From an uncultured Anaerolinea sp. (GTDB lineage: Bacteria > Chloroflexota > Anaerolineae > Anaerolineales > Villigracilaceae), in assembly GCA_964563315.1 (NCBI GenBank), contig CAZLWG010000006.1, positions 5,198 to 69,197 on the forward strand: DNA of 64,000 bases. The letters are read 5' to 3'. The notes beneath the pieces are model-generated. The model was not told the DNA's origin. It worked only from the letters and a program-made list of their open reading frames with translations, and made no database searches. Both the position numbers and the translations under genes were made by a program. This document shows, in pieces, positions 48,325-56,282 of this stretch (positions are counted from its first letter, which is position 1; each line of letters starts with the position of its first letter).

Positions 48325-48384
48325 GATTACTTGAAATCATCCTTTATGGTAATAAAGCACATGAGACCTGAACAGGAAAATCGT

Positions 48385-50865
48385 ATGATTACCCGAAAAT
48401 CCCCAGACAAGCGAAAAAGCCGCGCACAGGCAATGGTGGAATTCGCCCTTGCGCTGCCCGTCCTGCTTACTCTTTTGTACGGTGTATTAGAAACCGGGCG
48501 TCTGCTATTCATTTATGCGTCCACCGTCACTGCCGCACGTCAGGCGGTTCGTTACGGGTCAGCCACAGGCGACGGTCCCAACGGGGTACCGTACTATCAG
48601 GATTGTGCAGGAATCGAATCTGCGGCACACAGCGTGGGGTTCATAAATGTATTCGATAATATCGACATCGAGTACGACGATGGTCCGGGAACGGCCGTTT
48701 TCGATCAATGCCCGCCTTCCAATACCATCAGCAACAACGACCGCATCAAGGTTACCGTCAGCACGCAATGGGTGCCCATTGTTCCGATCGTTCCGCTCGA
48801 ACCCTTTACCATAGAATCCGAAAGCGCCCGAACCATCCTTGCATCGGTTTCCATCGCCGTGACGGCTCCTGCTGTCGGCTTTCCGGGGAGTGGAACTGGC
48901 GTTCTCGAAATAGATAAATCCGGTTCGCCAACCACGTACTCAAGCGCCGGACAAACGATTACATATACCTACACGCTGGCAAACACTGGCTCGGGCGATC
49001 TTGCAGCTCCATTTTCCGTTTCAGACGACAAAGTAGCAAGCGTAAATTGCGGCAGTGCGCCGGGAACCCTTGCTCCGGGCAATTCATTTACCTGTACCGG
49101 GAGTTATCAAATCACGCAAAACGATCTGGACGCAGGCTCTGTGACGAACACGGCATCCGCCTCTTCGAGCAACGGACCGTCAGCAAACAATGATTCATTC
49201 ACGGTAACGGCAATTCAATCTCCCGGACTGACACTCACCAAAAGCGCATCACCAACTGCCGCGTCCACCGTTGGCGCCACGATTACCTACACGTACACAT
49301 TGGAAAATACGGGAAATGTCACTCTTAACTCGCCGTTCATTGTGAGCGATAACAAAATCGCAAATGTCAGTTGTTCGGATGCCAACCCGCTACCTCCAAA
49401 TGGAACGAAAACCTGCATTGCAACCTACCAACTCACAAACGCGGATATCAATAATGGTTCTGTCACCAATCAGGCAGTTGCGACCGCGACATTTAATTCC
49501 ACTGTAGTAACGTCCAATACCGCGAGCGCCATGGTGACTACAATCCCTCTGGCGCTTGCCATCAGCCCGTCACCGGCAACGGCATCCATTCCAAATCAAG
49601 TCATCACCTATACCTATACCGTTAGGAACGTCACCGGTAACACTGCAAACTCCTTAAGTATTACAAGCTCGAATACTTCTCCGGTAAACTGCCCAAGTAC
49701 AACAATTCCAGCAGGAGGAACTGTTACCTGTACCAGTACATATACAGTTACGCAGGCGAATCTTGACGCTGGAGGCATGATCACCAACACGGCTACTGCC
49801 ACAGCAAATAATGGGTCGCCAGTTTCATCGAACACCGTAACAAACACCATCGCCATCGTCCAAACCCCCCAACTTTCTGCAAGTGTATCCGCGTCTCCTT
49901 CGCAGCCTGTAGCGCCTGCCACATCGCTCCCCGCCGGAACCGTCGTCACCTACACCTATACCCTATCCAACAACGGAAACGTAACTCTTGTGTCGCCTTT
50001 TTCCGTCTCGGACGACAAGACAACCATTACCTGCGGCAACCAGTCCAACCTCGCACCCGGCGCAACAAAAACCTGCACTGGGACTTATACGATTGCAGCC
50101 AACGATGTAGCCGCTGGATCCATCACCAACACCGGGACGGCATCTGCCAAATTCGGGTCACAAACGGTGACATCCAGCCCTGCAAGTGCGACAGTAATTA
50201 CTTATTCCGGCGCAAGGTTCAGCATGGCAATCAGTGCAAACCCCGCGACGATCACCCAATCCGGAACATCCGTTGTTTTCACCTATACGATCACAAATAC
50301 AGGCGGCAAATCACTGACATCACCCTACTCAATTACATCCAGCCTGGCGGGGACGTTCACTTGCGCGGGCACATCCCCGCTTGCCCCGGGCCAATCCACA
50401 TCCTGTCAGAATTCTTACACAACTTCGAATACCATTACAAATTCGATCACGGCAGCCACAGCAAAAGATGGAGCCGCTACCGTCTCCTCGTCCAACCTGC
50501 CATCCATCACGGTTCCATCGACCATTTGTACTACCGGAACCCTGACCCTGAGCGCGCCGGTAATGTCAGGAAACACCGCTACCTGGACGATCTCCAATAA
50601 TATTGGAACCACCCTGCATATCAATTCGATCACGGTAACCTGGAGCACTTCCGGAAATCGTTATCTTGCCGAGGTGCAACTCCCGGCGGGTACATCCATC
50701 TGGACGGGCAGTGATAAGGATGGGTTCGCTATTTTCAATGGGCTATGGACTATTAACGTCGGAAACACCCAACTTGTAATGCTCTTTACCAAATCCAGCA
50801 CGACCATCACAGACATGAATTTGACGTTCGACGAAAACGGATGCGGACCGCTGAACAACCCATAG
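48385..50865 (+). CDS. TadE-like minor pilin fused to five DUF11/DUF7507-like Ig repeats (pilus-borne adhesin)
   Basis: RAQAMVEFAL-TM-ETGR...AARQAVRYG TadE motif, then five ~105-aa repeats and a C-terminal beta domain. Start uncertain (48331, 48361 or 48385). Confidence 0.82.
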   Translation: MITRKSPDKRKSRAQAMVEFALALPVLLTLLYGVLETGRLLFIYASTVTAARQAVRYGSATGDGPNGVPYYQDCAGIESAAHSVGFINVFDNIDIEYDDGPGTAVFDQCPPSNTISNNDRIKVTVSTQWVPIVPIVPLEPFTIESESARTILASVSIAVTAPAVGFPGSGTGVLEIDKSGSPTTYSSAGQTITYTYTLANTGSGDLAAPFSVSDDKVASVNCGSAPGTLAPGNSFTCTGSYQITQNDLDAGSVTNTASASSSNGPSANNDSFTVTAIQSPGLTLTKSASPTAASTVGATITYTYTLENTGNVTLNSPFIVSDNKIANVSCSDANPLPPNGTKTCIATYQLTNADINNGSVTNQAVATATFNSTVVTSNTASAMVTTIPLALAISPSPATASIPNQVITYTYTVRNVTGNTANSLSITSSNTSPVNCPSTTIPAGGTVTCTSTYTVTQANLDAGGMITNTATATANNGSPVSSNTVTNTIAIVQTPQLSASVSASPSQPVAPATSLPAGTVVTYTYTLSNNGNVTLVSPFSVSDDKTTITCGNQSNLAPGATKTCTGTYTIAANDVAAGSITNTGTASAKFGSQTVTSSPASATVITYSGARFSMAISANPATITQSGTSVVFTYTITNTGGKSLTSPYSITSSLAGTFTCAGTSPLAPGQSTSCQNSYTTSNTITNSITAATAKDGAATVSSSNLPSITVPSTICTTGTLTLSAPVMSGNTATWTISNNIGTTLHINSITVTWSTSGNRYLAEVQLPAGTSIWTGSDKDGFAIFNGLWTINVGNTQLVMLFTKSSTTITDMNLTFDENGCGPLNNP
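48901..50514 (+). repeat. five tandem ~105-aa Ig-like protein repeats
   Basis: Recurring ITYTYTLxNxG...PFxVSD...C...L(A/P)PG...TC...Y...(S/M)(V/I)TN motif, two Cys per repeat. Confidence 0.85.
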
Positions 50866-50872
50866 GTCAAAG

Positions 50873-51325
50873 ATGAAAAATGTAACGAAACCGATTTTAA
50901 AAAACGAATCAGGTCAGAGTTTAGTGGAACTTGCCATCAGTCTTATCGTCATTCTACTCCTTCTCCTTGGCGCGATTGAGTTCAGCCTGGCGTTATTTCA
51001 ATATGTGACCATCCGCGATGCTGCACAGGAAGGCGCCTTATTCGGCTCGATCAATCCGGAGGATGAAGCTGGTATGAAAGCGCGTGCAATGGATGCAGCA
51101 TCAGATGTAGTAGCCTTGACCACTGGAGATGTAACTGTAAGCTGGAATAATCCGGCAAAAAAATGCGAGGGCTTGACCAGCAGCGTACCCCACGCCGTCA
51201 CGGTAACGATCACATTTAACCACCCCATTACTTTTCCACTAATTGGCCCTGCAATCGGTTCAAACACGATTCCTTTGACCGCCAGCGTTACCGATACGAT
51301 CCTATTCCCATCCTGCGATCCATAG
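50873..51325 (+). CDS. TadE/TadG family minor pilin
   Basis: SGQSLVELAI-TM, DAAQEGALFG. Confidence 0.88.
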   Translation: MKNVTKPILKNESGQSLVELAISLIVILLLLLGAIEFSLALFQYVTIRDAAQEGALFGSINPEDEAGMKARAMDAASDVVALTTGDVTVSWNNPAKKCEGLTSSVPHAVTVTITFNHPITFPLIGPAIGSNTIPLTASVTDTILFPSCDP

Positions 51326-51369
51326 AACGTTTCAAATCAGTTCGCTAGTAGCTAGCAGAAAGAGGCATC

Positions 51370-52740
51370 ATGAAAAGGAAAAATAATCCTGAAAGCGGGC
51401 AGGCGATTATTCTGATCGTTTTTGCGATCGTGGGATTAATCGGCCTGACTGCCCTGACTGTTGACGGCGGCATGGCATATTCAAACCGCCGTCATGCCCA
51501 AAACGCTTCGGATACCGCCGCTCTTGCCGCTGCACGCGCCAAGGTACGGCAGGAACCATGGAAGGGCGCCGCGTTGGTTATCGCGTCTGAAAACGGATTC
51601 ACAGACCTGTTTGCAGACGACAACTCAAGCGATGACTTGATAAATGTCGAAGTGTATGGATGTGAGGAAGCTGCCTCAACCTGCGGCGTTTATGCCGGCA
51701 ATCCCGAGTACTTGCAAGTTAGGATTACATCCATCGTCGATACGTTTTTTGCCCGTGTAATCGGCGTTCAACAGGTTACCAATCGGGTCAATTCGGTTGT
51801 GCAGGCAAAACCAGCAACCAACGACCCCACTCTATTGGGCAATGCCATGGTCTCATTGATGTGCGGGTGTAAAAACGAGCATGGCTGGAACATGGACCCT
51901 TTCACAATCAGCGGCAATTCCGTGTCCATCGTGGGAGGATCGGGCGTATTTGTTAATTCTGACTGCGCAAACGCATTTACTCAAAACGGCAGCGCGTCCA
52001 TGGAATCCGAATACGGAGTTTGCGTTGTAGGGTCAAGTAATTACGCTCCCGGTTCAGTGGACCCTCCTCCCACATCATCATGCGGCACACAACTAAGTTG
52101 TCCGCCGCCGATCATATTCCCGAATCCTACTTGCGACAACAACGGTAACGGGACAATTGAACCTTCAGAGAGAGGCTCAATTACTCAAATCTCCTCCACC
52201 CCAAGGGTTTACAAAGCCACGCCAGGGTATTACAACGGTGACTTTCCCAGTACTTCGCCATCCGGAAAACTGATCCTTCAAAAGGGAATCTACTGCATAG
52301 ACGATGACTTTATCCTTAATAACACTTGGGTAATTACGACAGATGTAAATGACAACAACACACATGACACGGCAACGGAAGGCGTCCTCATCATGGTCGA
52401 AAACGGAGGAATCAGACTAAACGGCACGTCATTCCTGGACTTGCACGCAATGAATGATCCAAACCTTGATGAAGATATACAAAATCTGCTCTTCTATATC
52501 CCGCCCGGGAACACTTCACCACTGAACATGAACGGCTCTGCGGGCTCCACCTTTACAGGGTCCATTTGGGCACCGACATCGCACTGCTCGCTGGAAGGTA
52601 CAAATACATCGTATGATGTCAACAGCCAGTTGATGTGCTTTACGATATCCCTTTCAGGCAGCGCGAATATTGACATCACCTACAACCAGAACGAAAACCA
52701 GATCATCACCGTCCCGCCTTCTGTGGAGTTGACCGAATAA
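51370..52740 (+). CDS. TadG-like pilus tip protein (paralog 1)
   Basis: SGQAIILIVF-TM-VDGG, AQNASDTAALAAA; Cys- and Gly/Ser/Asn-rich beta C-terminal region. Confidence 0.85.
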   Translation: MKRKNNPESGQAIILIVFAIVGLIGLTALTVDGGMAYSNRRHAQNASDTAALAAARAKVRQEPWKGAALVIASENGFTDLFADDNSSDDLINVEVYGCEEAASTCGVYAGNPEYLQVRITSIVDTFFARVIGVQQVTNRVNSVVQAKPATNDPTLLGNAMVSLMCGCKNEHGWNMDPFTISGNSVSIVGGSGVFVNSDCANAFTQNGSASMESEYGVCVVGSSNYAPGSVDPPPTSSCGTQLSCPPPIIFPNPTCDNNGNGTIEPSERGSITQISSTPRVYKATPGYYNGDFPSTSPSGKLILQKGIYCIDDDFILNNTWVITTDVNDNNTHDTATEGVLIMVENGGIRLNGTSFLDLHAMNDPNLDEDIQNLLFYIPPGNTSPLNMNGSAGSTFTGSIWAPTSHCSLEGTNTSYDVNSQLMCFTISLSGSANIDITYNQNENQIITVPPSVELTE

Positions 52741-54003
52741 ATGGTCGGACATGGTTCTCGGAACAAAAGGGGAACAAAAAAGGATGAGCGCGGGCAGGCG
52801 CTCATCCTTATCGTTTTTACCATCATCGGATTGGTGGGTATTACAGCACTGGCGGTGGATGGCGGCAATGCTTTTCTCGAACGACGGCGGGCGCAGAACG
52901 CCGCCGACATTACAGCGCTTGGCGGTGCATTGGCGAGAATTAAAGGCACCGGTTGGGTCAACGAGACCTTTAAAATTGCAAAGGGAAACGGCTACGATAA
53001 CAATGGCAACACCAATTTCGTACAGGTCTTCAGCCCGCCCGCCACAGGCGTATATGCAGGCGATATCGAATACATCCAGGTTCGGATTACTTCGCACGTA
53101 TCCACATTTTTTGCAAGAGCAATCGGCATCCCGCAAATCACGGTCTCTGCGGAGGCAGTCTCTCGAACAAAGAAATCGGAGATCAAGGAAATCCTTGACG
53201 GCAATGCGATCATCAGCCTTGCCCCTACGAGCGACTGCAACAACGAGCGCGCCTTCTGGGTTCACGGAGAATCAACACTCGATATAAGCGGAGGCGGGGT
53301 CTTTATCAACTCGAACCACCCTGAATGCGCCCTTTACACCAACGGAAGCGGAAGCATTCGTATTGATGGCGGCGAAATATCGATTGTCGGCGGAGCGACG
53401 ATCCAAAAACCTCAATTGATCACACCTTTCCCGCCAAAAACAAAATCCATGCCCATCACCTACCCTCCCCCGTTTTTCATGCCCGAGATCGGATGCGGGA
53501 GTAAAATGGCGCAAGTGCTGGAAGACGGCGTAACCATGTCCCCCGGCTCATACGACGAAGACGTATTCCCGCCGGAAGGCGTTCACTTCCTCGAAGCGGG
53601 CGTCTATTGCATCAACGGCGATTTCCTGCTGGGAGGCACCTCTCTCGAGGGCGGCGGCGTCACTTTCAAAATGGAACACGGGAAAGTGAAATGGAGCGGC
53701 AATTCATACGTCAATTTAGGCGCACCCTTGACTGGGGAACGCGCCGGTTTGCTCTTTTTCGCCCCCATCGAAAACAAGAACAGAATGGTATTTACCAGCA
53801 ATATCGAGTCGGAATTAAAAGGAACGGTTCTGATGCCAGGCGCGGAAATACACCTCAACGGCGGCGACTCGCCGATCGGATATCACAGCCAATTCATCGG
53901 CTACCGCATCGAATCCAACGGTCAGAGCAACATCGTCATCAAGTATAAGGATGACCAGAATTACGACACCTACACCATGCCAGAAATCCAACTAATCAAG
54001 TAA
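52741..54003 (+). CDS. TadG-like pilus tip protein (paralog 2)
   Basis: RGQALILIVF-TM-VDGG, AQNAADITALGGA; shares YxQVRITSxVxTFFARxIG with paralog 1. Confidence 0.85.
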   Translation: MVGHGSRNKRGTKKDERGQALILIVFTIIGLVGITALAVDGGNAFLERRRAQNAADITALGGALARIKGTGWVNETFKIAKGNGYDNNGNTNFVQVFSPPATGVYAGDIEYIQVRITSHVSTFFARAIGIPQITVSAEAVSRTKKSEIKEILDGNAIISLAPTSDCNNERAFWVHGESTLDISGGGVFINSNHPECALYTNGSGSIRIDGGEISIVGGATIQKPQLITPFPPKTKSMPITYPPPFFMPEIGCGSKMAQVLEDGVTMSPGSYDEDVFPPEGVHFLEAGVYCINGDFLLGGTSLEGGGVTFKMEHGKVKWSGNSYVNLGAPLTGERAGLLFFAPIENKNRMVFTSNIESELKGTVLMPGAEIHLNGGDSPIGYHSQFIGYRIESNGQSNIVIKYKDDQNYDTYTMPEIQLIK

Positions 54004-54027: not shown

Positions 54028-54059
54028 TCAGGCTGGACCCCTCAGCCTGATTCTGTTTA
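54028..54059 (+). terminator. probable terminator of the Tad cassette
   Basis: TCAGGCTG/CAGCCTGA stem followed by TTCTGTTT. Confidence 0.55.
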
Positions 54060-54128
54060 ATGAGTTATAATCCTCCCCCGACATCGGTAAAAATGGAGGT
54101 GAACACAAAAATCATATACGGGAAAGAC

Positions 54129-54350
54129 AGCGCATGGACTTTGACTTGCAACGAACAGCCAAAGTTGACGAGGATGAGGGTTCTCCATTGCAAAATGGAG
54201 CCAATGTTCCCATAACTGCGGAACAGAAAATCGAAGGATCAGCGGAAGCCCTCCGGGTACGCCATGACCCGTCATTCTTTCCCTCCAGAAGCAACCCCAA
54301 CCAGAAACACCCGTGAGCGATCACAGGAGCAAAAGGGCTGGGGAATGGCA
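54129..54350 (+). ncRNA. glmS ribozyme (GlcN6P-activated self-cleaving riboswitch), expanded variant
   Basis: A|GCGCATGGACT at 54129, P1 ACTTTG/CAAAGT, GACGAGG at 54167, GAGGG/CCCTC pairing, ATCGAAG...AGCGGA, distal GCGA (GNRA) tetraloop hairpin; directly upstream of glmS. The 3' boundary is approximate. Confidence 0.9.
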
Positions 54351-54440
54351 ACACAAAGAGGACGGTGCCCGGGCATTCAGGCAAGGCCTATCAGCCTGGG
54401 TTTTGACGTCCAAATCTATTAACTTGGAGGATCCCCTACC

Positions 54441-56282
54441 ATGTGTGGAATCGTCGGTTATGTCGGCGCGCGAGACGCGACGCCGATCATACTCAATGGT
54501 TTGAAAAGGCTCGAATACCGCGGATATGATTCGGCGGGTGTTGCCGTCATTAACAGCAACCAGATCGAGGTCCGGAGAGATGCGGGCAAGTTGTCGCAAT
54601 TGGTTGACCTGGTCGGCAAAAGCCCTCTTAAAGGCGCCCCTGGAATCGGTCATACCCGCTGGGCAACGCACGGCGCGCCGTCGGCAAGGAATGCACATCC
54701 GCATGTCGGGAATTCGGGCAAGGTCGTTGTGGTTCACAACGGTATCGTCGAAAATTTTCTTGAACTGAAGGACGAATTGACCAGCGAAGGCGTGACGTTC
54801 AACTCGGAGACCGACACTGAAACCATCGTCCATCTTGCCGAGCATCTCAAAGCCGGGGGAAACAATCTTGAAGATGCCGCGCGAAAAACATTCAATCAGA
54901 TCGAAGGCGCAAACGTGGTGGTGATGATGTCTCCCGATGAGCCGGATAAGATCGTGACCGCCAGGATCGGGAATGCCGGCGGCGTGGTGATCGGGCTGGG
55001 TGAAAACGAGAATTTCATCGCGTCGGATATTCCTGCCATTCTCGAACATACGCGCAAGGTGATATTCCTTGAGTCGCGGCAGATGGCAGTGGTGACACGT
55101 GACAGTGTGCGCGTGCAGACGCTCGATGGAATTGAAATAGATCCCGAAATCCATACCATCGCATGGGATGCTGTTTCTGCAGAAAAAGGCGAGTACCGCC
55201 ATTTTATGCAGAAAGAAATTCACGAACAGGTGCGCGCATTGACCGACACTCTGGCCGGACGTATCGATTTTCAAGAGGGGCGCATCCGCCTGCCGGAACT
55301 CAAACTCACGCCCGAAATCGCTAAACGCATCCAGCGCATGTACATCACAGCCTGCGGCACGGCGGCCTATGCGGGCATGGTCGGCAAATATCTCATTGAA
55401 AAGATCGCCCGAATTCCAGTCGAAGTAGTGATCGGTTCGGAGTTTCGTTACAGCGACCCGATCATCGATGCGAACACAGTCGTGCTTGCCATCTCTCAAT
55501 CCGGCGAAACAGCAGACACTCTCGCTGCCATGGAGGAAGGCAAGCGAAAAGGCGGCATTGTGTGGAGCATTGTCAACGCCATTGGGTCGCAAGCCATGCG
55601 CGTTGCCGACGGCTTCATCTCCATGCAAACCGGACCCGAGGTGGGAGTGGCATCCACGAAAGCATTCACCGCCCCGCTCGTGAACCAATACATGCTCGCC
55701 ATTCTACTGGCAGATTTGCGCGGAACGATGGATGAAGAAACACGCAAATCGCTTGTCTCTGATCTGCGCCTTGTACCAGACCTGGCGGGCCGGGTATTGG
55801 ACACCGAGCCGAATATCGAAGAAGTTGCTTACGTTCTGAAAGACATCCGAAACTGTCTGTATTTGGGGCGCGGCATAAACATGCCTATCGCCTATGAGGG
55901 CGCGTTAAAACTCAAGGAAATCTCATACATCCACGCAGAAGGCTACCCTGCCGGCGAAATGAAGCACGGGCCCATTGCGCTGATCGACGAAGAAATGCCC
56001 GTGCTTTGTATTGCCCCCAAAGACCCCTGGCACGAGAAAATGATCTCACAGATCCAGCAGGCAAAGGCGCGGGGCGGAATTGTCGTTGCTGTGGCAACCG
56101 AGGGTGATGAACTGGTCGGAGGCATGGCAGACCATGTCCTGTGGATTCCTGAAGCACCGTGGATGCTCTCGCCGGTCGTGACCGTCCTTCCCCTGCAATT
56201 GCTTGCCTATCACATCGCCGCGATCCGCGGATTGGATGTAGACCAACCGCGCAACCTGGCAAAAAGTGTGACAGTGGAATAA
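54441..56282 (+). CDS. glmS: glutamine--fructose-6-phosphate aminotransferase (isomerizing)
   Basis: MCGIVG, LEYRGYDSAG, GHTRWATHG, HNGIVEN, SQSGETADT, LKLKEISYIHAEG, DQPRNLAKSVTVE. Confidence 0.99.
   Translation: MCGIVGYVGARDATPIILNGLKRLEYRGYDSAGVAVINSNQIEVRRDAGKLSQLVDLVGKSPLKGAPGIGHTRWATHGAPSARNAHPHVGNSGKVVVVHNGIVENFLELKDELTSEGVTFNSETDTETIVHLAEHLKAGGNNLEDAARKTFNQIEGANVVVMMSPDEPDKIVTARIGNAGGVVIGLGENENFIASDIPAILEHTRKVIFLESRQMAVVTRDSVRVQTLDGIEIDPEIHTIAWDAVSAEKGEYRHFMQKEIHEQVRALTDTLAGRIDFQEGRIRLPELKLTPEIAKRIQRMYITACGTAAYAGMVGKYLIEKIARIPVEVVIGSEFRYSDPIIDANTVVLAISQSGETADTLAAMEEGKRKGGIVWSIVNAIGSQAMRVADGFISMQTGPEVGVASTKAFTAPLVNQYMLAILLADLRGTMDEETRKSLVSDLRLVPDLAGRVLDTEPNIEEVAYVLKDIRNCLYLGRGINMPIAYEGALKLKEISYIHAEGYPAGEMKHGPIALIDEEMPVLCIAPKDPWHEKMISQIQQAKARGGIVVAVATEGDELVGGMADHVLWIPEAPWMLSPVVTVLPLQLLAYHIAAIRGLDVDQPRNLAKSVTVE

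Follow-up and report, generated by a model that had tools for sequence, protein, structure and literature searches.

A glmS ribozyme in the leader of glmS

The window, a 64,000-nt stretch of a contig from an uncultured Anaerolinea sp., carries on its forward strand an open reading frame for a 613-aa protein with the N-terminus MCGIVGYVG. We assign this frame to GlmS because its product contains a glutamine amidotransferase (GATase) domain and two SIS stretches (Pfam). The protein is up to 83% identical to proteins of Chloroflexota metagenome-assembled genomes (MAGs) in a search of one genome per species, and its closest relatives all belong to Chloroflexota MAGs, mostly labelled Anaerolineae or Anaerolineales. 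Metagenomes from activated sludge and biofilm contain near-identical DNA, and both the leader and glmS are covered by metatranscriptome contigs, one of them beginning at 54091; the contig breaks track strain variation, and so these contigs are uninformative on 5' ends or cleavage.

Further upstream (48331-54003) lie four Tad/Flp-pilus-like genes with TadE- and TadG-like N-termini, one of them encoding an 844-aa protein with four DUF7507 repeats, and a terminator-like hairpin at 54028-54050 follows the end of this group at 54003. The leader itself has a likely -10 box, and in relatives TAnAAT boxes are concentrated 58-64 nt before the cleavage site; a promoter scan of the leader returned no full -35/-10 match.

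The element in this 5' UTR is a glmS ribozyme, as the original prediction had proposed: a covariance-model search aligns Rfam family RF00234 to 54118-54352 on the forward strand, directly upstream of glmS, at 43.5 bits (E 7.5e-07), which is only 6.5 bits above the gathering score of 37 bits. The full model (positions 1-167) is covered and all upper-case consensus nucleotides match, with two places of excess length in which 56 nt of the window stand against 10 of the model and 36 nt against 16. From the 3' end of the match to the glmS ATG is 89 nt, within which 54353-54420 forms a structured spacer between ribozyme and Shine-Dalgarno (SD) region, with a stem CCCGGGC..GCCUGGG followed by UUUU and a sequence that is unconserved in relatives. 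The claim that all catalytic-core motifs are present also stands: A↓GCG (54129-54133, the arrow marking the cleavage site), GACGAGG (54167-54173), GGUU (54179-54182), AUCGA (54230-54234) and GCGGA (54242-54246) were all found, and each is invariant across 50 relatives. The gene, the promoter element and the core of the ribozyme are as follows.

54066-54071, + strand: TATAAT, likely -10 box of the glmS leader promoter (sequence reading)
54129-54130, + strand: predicted self-cleavage site A↓G, aligned to A↓GCGCC of the Rfam glmS model
54131-54136, + strand: P2.2 5' strand CGCAUG, pairing with 54240-54244 (CAGCG) by complementarity and the register of Andreasson et al. 2020
54137-54166, + strand: P1 hairpin, stem 54137-54143 with 54160-54166 (Rfam alignment)
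54167-54173, + strand: GACGAGG, with the P2.1 5' strand C54169-A54171 and the general-base G54170; invariant in alignment A1 (below)
54176-54180, + strand: P2 5' strand GAGGG, pairing with 54249-54253 (RNAalifold)
54240-54248, + strand: P2.2 3' strand CAGCG, then the linker GAAG
54249-54253, + strand: P2 3' strand CCCUC (RNAalifold and covariation)
54441-56282, + strand: glmS coding sequence, 613 aa (open reading frame list)

We placed the core on the crystal-based numbering of the Thermoanaerobacter tengcongensis ribozyme (Andreasson et al. 2020, PMC7125110), in which P2.2 runs from C2-G56 to C5-G53 and, past a bulged A6, to G7-C52, P2.1 pairs residues 28-30 (CGA of GACGAGG) with 43-45 (UCG of AUCGA), and residues 39-42 and 57-60 are the linkers on either side of P2. 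In the window P2.1 joins CGA (54169-54171) to UCG (54231-54233), and P2.2 consists of C-G, G-C and C-G pairs (CGC 54131-54133 with GCG 54242-54244), an A•A mismatch, a bulged U and a final G-C pair (G54136 with C54240). Complementarity, the published register and covariation in P2 together place the double pseudoknot of P2.1 and P2.2 around P2 in this RNA. The A•A mismatch occupies the 5-53 position; single mutants at C5 or G53 of the T. tengcongensis core lose activity about 1000-fold, and the C5-G53 pair is poorly conserved in nature (PMC7125110). A compensatory change from A-U to C-G is found in P2.1 of one relative (L019:148-281), which has GACGCGG with AAGCGA and not GACGAGG with AAUCGA. 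The 'P2a' of the nested Rfam drawing is the P2.1 strand together with the P2.1-P2.2 loop; a hairpin AUC-GNRA-GAU considered as P2a was superseded, UCG belonging to P2.1.

The two-hairpin insert and its relatives

The larger of the differences from the Rfam model is an insert of 47 nt (54183-54229) between GGUU and AUCGA, for which the original prediction had given coordinates that are correct throughout: GAGGGTT at 54176-54182, CTCCAT/ATGGAG at 54183-54188 and 54195-54200, TGTTCC/GGAACA at 54205-54210 and 54220-54225, and ATCGAAG from 54230 are all present in the sequence. Read against the published register, the insert replaces the 4-nt P2-P2.1 linker, residues 39-42, which is UUUA in canonical ribozymes, with UU, a hairpin A, CCAA (YUAA in the subclass), a hairpin B and GAAA(A), in that order.

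54183-54200, + strand: insert hairpin A, a perfect 7-bp stem with a GCAA tetraloop; compensatory changes
54201-54204, + strand: junction strand CCAA (consensus YUAA), both A's at least 90% conserved in A1
54205-54225, + strand: insert hairpin B, a variable arm; five basal pairs with compensatory changes
54226-54234, + strand: junction strand GAAA, then AUCGA, of which U54231-G54233 are the P2.1 3' strand and part of the cofactor pocket

Relatives were taken from a genome set of the closest GlmS loci, comprising Chloroflexota and 49 non-Chloroflexota loci, and from a metagenome scan with the pattern ATCGANNNWTCAGCGGAWGCC, which lies outside the insert and yielded at least 120 contigs, at least about 100 of them glmS leaders with the insert. 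Within the 20 nearest genome loci, the Rfam search at its gathering score picks up six whose insert, 46-85 nt long, occupies the same site; a simple search anchored on GACGAGG and CGGAWGCC reveals the insert in many more. The Rfam model is below threshold for 10 of the 16 insert-bearing loci among these first 20 and passes the other 6: L003, L009, L002, L008, L007 and L044 score 35.3, 33.0, 31.6, 27.8, 21.3 and 20.7 bits, respectively, and L011 and L016 have no RF00234 match at E <= 1. L020, a canonical ribozyme among the same 20, reaches 89.2 bits, about twice the score of the window.

Alignment A1 holds 50 relatives, and a covariance model built from it (R1) gives the window 110.5 bits. R1 detects the insert in 19 Chloroflexota genome loci (77-115 bits), scores two Chloroflexota ribozymes with a canonical core at 54 and 44 bits, and found none in the 49 loci from other phyla; its matches in the combined genome and metagenome set number 101. 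Where metagenome members carried enough glmS sequence, the best GlmS match was a Chloroflexota locus in 59 of 60 cases, at 60-99% identity. Anaerolineae were encountered in metagenomes of activated sludge, biofilm and sediment. Within the loci examined, then, the insert-bearing subclass appears to occur almost only in Anaerolineae (Chloroflexota).

Both insert hairpins form in the minimum free energy (MFE) and centroid structures of the window (RNAfold). The folding-energy z-score of the element is only -1.5; thermodynamics alone therefore proves nothing, and the support is comparative. When 114 distinct inserts were folded independently, 108 gave two hairpins in their MFE structures. Given a plain MAFFT alignment, RNAalifold recovers P2, hairpin A and the basal part of hairpin B, with compensatory changes in 15 of 17 pairs; pairing holds in 94.1% of cells, and covariation scores 0.737 against 0.277 when shuffled (0/500) and 0.09-0.20 with slid partners. 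The 101-sequence alignment was fitted to the structure by the model, and the MAFFT result is concordant with it: 95.8% of its cells are paired and covariation is 0.728 against 0.250 shuffled, slid partners scoring 0.05-0.20 over both alignments. By helix, the 101 sequences show changes on both sides in five of five basal pairs of P1, 99.6% of cells paired and double changes in three pairs of P2, changes on both sides in all seven pairs of hairpin A (96% of cells paired), and compensatory changes in all five basal pairs of hairpin B. The check for covariation across relatives that the original prediction had proposed thus returns compensatory changes for both hairpins in about 100 relatives, and the 'structural variant' it had suspected is a real, conserved insert in the core region.

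The unpaired nucleotides around the hairpins are also conserved. ATCGA is invariant in A1 and the three A's directly before it are at least 90% conserved; residues 43-45, which this strand contains, have a role in the cofactor pocket (PMC7125110). Around the P2.2 3' strand, TCAGCGGA is invariant in A1, the metagenome members of which were picked by a pattern containing TCAGCGGA.

The two hairpins differ in how far they vary. In 112 inserts that could be parsed, the stem of hairpin A is 7 bp long in 76, and its loop is GCGA in 38, GCAA in 19, GCAG in 11, GCGC in 6 and GCGG in 4; about 40% of the loops are non-GNRA. A search for a tetraloop receptor, comparing the third nucleotide of this loop with every column of the 5' half, gave no covariation signal. 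Hairpin B ranges in relatives from 4 bp to more than 100 nt, strain differences among the RNA contigs concentrate within it (54209-54221), and it is absent in L090, L121 and L152, in which a single hairpin sits at the position of hairpin A. Three low-G+C contigs (L167, L178, L184) share the CAGCGG strand, and in these the insert is absent.

Hairpin B often carries G+C-rich palindromes that occur elsewhere too. One of these, CCCUCUCC(C)..GGGAGAGGG, often nested in CCCUCACCCC..GGGGUGAGGG, recurs within hairpin B (L002:213, L099:8498, L127:600, L158:293, L198:1456) as well as at unrelated sites (L103:1913, L146:2231, L163:2059), which suggests a small dispersed palindromic repeat landing in hairpin B. 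Two further loci have unusual arrangements. In L105 (3731-3879 and 4698-4812, reverse strand) the ribozyme is split or partly duplicated: a 5' half reaching to hairpin A is followed, about 0.9 kb downstream, by a second copy that begins with GACGAGG and has no cleavage site. Either an insertion into hairpin B or a chimeric assembly could account for this. In L025 (173-364) a divergent insert-bearing glmS-like element, at 55 bits with R1 and with no clear AGCGC cleavage site, stands in front of genes for a DegT-family aminotransferase and a GFO/IDH/MocA oxidoreductase, both of which precede glmS.

Peripheral domain, P3-P4 linker and leader

Downstream of the core the original prediction had described an enlarged P4 domain. 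P3, P4, the A-rich internal loop and P4.1 instead align to Rfam without large insertions. The long 3' region that it noted is real in that some 20 extra nt are present, and these sit in the P3-P4 linker (54272-54295) and not in P4; the CGGGT/ACCCG stem and the GCGA-capped hairpin likewise exist, and they are the ordinary P3 (54254-54271) and P4.1. What had been missed is that the extra length pairs with the leader, in a helix we call P0, and holds a stretch complementary to the Shine-Dalgarno region (anti-SD).

54094-54102, + strand: leader Shine-Dalgarno-like element UGGAGGUGA, about 34 nt upstream of the cleavage site, start codon absent behind it
54120-54127, + strand: P0 5' strand GGGAAAGA, pairing with 54276-54283 (MFE and centroid)
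54254-54271, + strand: P3 hairpin, loop GCCAU (54261-54265) pairing with 54345-54349 as P3.1 (Rfam alignment)
54276-54283, + strand: P0 3' strand UCUUUCCC in the long P3-P4 linker (MFE and centroid)
54282-54288, + strand: anti-SD stretch CCUCCAG, complementary to 54424-54430 and overlapping the P0 strand by two C's
54296-54342, + strand: P4, A-rich internal loop and P4.1, aligned to Rfam model positions 111-157
54345-54349, + strand: P3.1 3' strand AUGGC (loop-tail covariation)
54424-54430, + strand: glmS Shine-Dalgarno region UUGGAGG, 11 nt before the ATG (sequence reading)

P4 pairs 54296-54302 with 54336-54342, and P4.1 pairs 54310-54316 with 54321-54327 around its GCGA loop. P3.1 covaries as a loop NCCAY with a tail RUGGN, in which C occurs only with G (32 members) and U only with A (11 members), and a variant pair of ACCAC with GUGGU is also found. 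Four relatives of the 'Anaerolinea sp.' type (L007:2730-2910, L008:2764-2940, L009:2782-2961, L044:2580-2790) keep the insert and P0 and seem to be without P3.1, P4 and P4.1; L009 has 11 nt against the 26 of the model in this domain, and the four score 21-33 bits with RF00234, below the threshold of 37. A heuristic relating the presence of P4/P4.1 to loop type proved unreliable, failing on the P4.1 of the window itself, and was dropped. L009 also has a glycine riboswitch (RF00504, 57 bits; L009:597-686, reverse strand), about 2 kb ahead of its glmS leader.

The 5' strand of P0 is 8 nt long and ends two bases before the cleavage site. Relatives pair GCAGGUG with CACCUGC, GCAUGG with CCAUGC, UUGGGAU with AUCCCAA and GAAGGAAG with CUUCCUUC at these positions, and in a permutation test the mean best helix was 6.62 with own partners against 5.91±0.09 with permuted partners (0/1000). 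P0 also occurs in the canonical-core Chloroflexota ribozymes L020 and L022. Flanks of the anti-SD and SD covary as well (CCUCCGAAAUA/UAUUUCGGAGG, CCUCCUG/CAGGAGG, AUCCCCUCCUG/CAGGAGGGGAU), with a score of 7.39 against 6.92±0.12 (0/500). Folded with RNAfold, the 3' cleavage product is predicted to have its anti-SD paired with the glmS SD (MFE and centroid), whereas in the uncleaved leader the predicted partner of the anti-SD is UGGAGG at 54094-54099 (MFE).

This leader element is itself recurrent: GGAGG occurs 22-50 nt before the cleavage site in 63 of 105 relatives, against 3 of 105 in a control window, with the consensus AAGGAGGUG, and a start codon follows within 3-10 nt in only 5 of the 63. 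Pairing between the leader element and the linker shows no excess over permuted controls (7.20 against 7.10±0.11), and for this reason the idea of a decoy comes from a single MFE prediction; instead of a decoy, the element may be a 5' stabiliser that binds ribosomes. We hypothesize that cleavage would also remove this 5' element and so let the linker sequester the ribosome-binding site, a proposal that draws on modest covariation and one folding comparison.

A proposed role for the insert and its place among glmS ribozymes

We consider it likely that the element is a functional GlcN6P-dependent glmS ribozyme of an Anaerolineae subclass, in which hairpin A braces the P2/P2.1 core and hairpin B is a permissive arm. 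GlcN6P would bind a preformed pocket and the RNA would be expected, from its sequence, to cleave at A54129↓G54130, after which the downstream glmS mRNA would be shut down, as has been established for the family (PMC6765202). The replaced linker lies on a quasi-continuous strand at the P2/P2.1 junction of an H-type pseudoknot, and for this reason we picture the insert bulging outward at the junction of two stacked core helices, a placement derived from topology in which the catalytic and cofactor-contacting nucleotides would stay where they are. Hairpin A and the adenosines of the junction strands would then form an extra peripheral brace of the P2/P2.1 core, and hairpin B a solvent-facing arm free to grow, shrink or vanish. 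Bracing, the most likely role of hairpin A, would be analogous to what is seen in canonical ribozymes, in which purines of the P4 internal loop pack on P2.1; as a partner for loop A was not found, we derive it from how differently the two hairpins are constrained.

The insert could, alternatively, be a neutral expansion at a permissive core loop, inherited in Anaerolineae and with no role in folding or catalysis, a reading that seems to us improbable for the insert as a whole and weaker for hairpin A than for hairpin B. It would explain readily why hairpin B can be as short as 4 bp or exceed 100 nt, hosts dispersed palindromes, differs between strains and is lost in L090, L121 and L152, and it fits with the insert-free forms that have the CAGCGG strand (L167, L178, L184), with the failure to detect a tertiary partner for the hairpin-A loop, and with a core ribozyme that tolerates insertions better than deletions. 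Hairpin A behaves otherwise: its stem is held at 7 bp in 76 of 112 inserts and its loop is mostly GCNN, while the stem sequence has turned over fully (7/7 pairs). Conservation of the junction adenosines is at least 90%, and the pattern spans GlmS identities of 60-99%. Those same adenosines bear on the suggestion, made in the original prediction, that the insert binds a second ligand or recruits a protein. About ten conserved unpaired nucleotides lie beside the two hairpins and adjoin the cofactor-pocket strand AUCGA, as might be expected of an aptamer for another metabolite or of a protein-binding site that tunes cleavage; they are, however, mostly A's, typical of A-minor packing. We found no support for such a second sensor, and think it very unlikely because conserved internal loops or bulges are absent, one arm is hypervariable or missing altogether, and no other Rfam family matches over the variant. 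Least probable is that the element is a decayed, non-catalytic relic of a glmS ribozyme, to which the low Rfam score and the A•A mismatch in P2.2 might point: core nucleotides are invariant in about 100 members, every helix shows compensatory evolution, and the element always stands in front of glmS.

An extended form of the bracing model takes in the leader as well, and we regard it as a possible but unlikely account. The Anaerolineae subclass would combine a two-hairpin brace, which may replace P4/P4.1 where these are absent, with a P0 clamp across the cleavage site and a three-part expression platform made up of the leader SD-like element, the P3-P4 linker's anti-SD and the SD of glmS itself, so that cleavage is coupled to translational shut-off. 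Self-cleavage would take away the 5' element, be it stabiliser or decoy, and release the anti-SD, which would sequester the ribosome-binding site of glmS, and shut-off would then be translational and not only a matter of RNase-mediated decay. We know of no leader/linker helix, anti-SD or leader SD-like platform described for glmS ribozymes. In Firmicutes, Shine-Dalgarno-like sequences near the 5' end (STAB-SD) stabilise mRNAs; the leader AAGGAGGUG, near the 5' end and with the start codon absent, has a resemblance only to these, and would here be detached by cleavage.

The window shares with the canonical RF00234 ribozymes of Bacillus and T. tengcongensis the motifs A↓GCGC, GACGAGG, GGUU, AUCGA and GCGGA, the helices P1, P2, P2.1, P2.2, P3, P3.1, P4 and P4.1 with its GNRA loop, and a location in the glmS 5' UTR. 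It differs in having the 47-nt two-hairpin module in place of the 4-nt P2-P2.1 linker, GCGCAUG and CAGCGG in P2.2 instead of GCGCC and CGGCGG, a P3-P4 linker of about 23 nt against about 4 nt that pairs with the leader (P0) and the SD, and an RF00234 score half that of the canonical Chloroflexota ribozyme L020 (43.5 against 89.2 bits). L022 (Chloroflexota, 2723-2829) shares the P0-type leader/linker complementarity and also has an extra core hairpin; that hairpin lies in the P2.1-P2.2 loop, 3' of AUCGA (the P2a loop of Rfam), and GCGCC and CGGCGG are kept. McCown, Roth and Breaker reportedly described in 2011 glmS variants of Deinococcus-Thermus that have extra stems in the catalytic core and altered core-supporting substructures. 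Compared by abstract only, and in a different phylum, these resemble the present subclass in kind through their extra core stems, and L007-L009 and L044 through their altered periphery; among the matches listed from a plasmid collection there was no Deinococcus or Thermus glmS. There is a real chance, if the lesser one, that the same insertion site has already been documented in another phylum. We classify the insert-bearing element as a known kind of ribozyme in a structurally new form, the comparison with the Deinococcus-Thermus core stems being by abstract only, because full-text literature searches, which also took in Thermus, turned up nothing on glmS variants of this sort from Anaerolineae or Chloroflexota, Rfam 15 gives them no family of their own, and the Rfam model under-scores them.

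For the Anaerolineae one consequence is that glmS riboswitch control is under-called, as the Rfam model misses many members (10 of 16 genome loci fall short of the threshold); with R1 such loci score 77-118 bits. Two helices, one constrained and one free to vary, both set in the strand that leads to the cofactor pocket, offer a test of how the periphery supports a catalytic core, and hairpin B marks a permissive site for engineering. Finally, these ribozymes may be joined to an expression platform, to judge from the helix between leader and linker, the anti-SD and the SD-like element of the leader.
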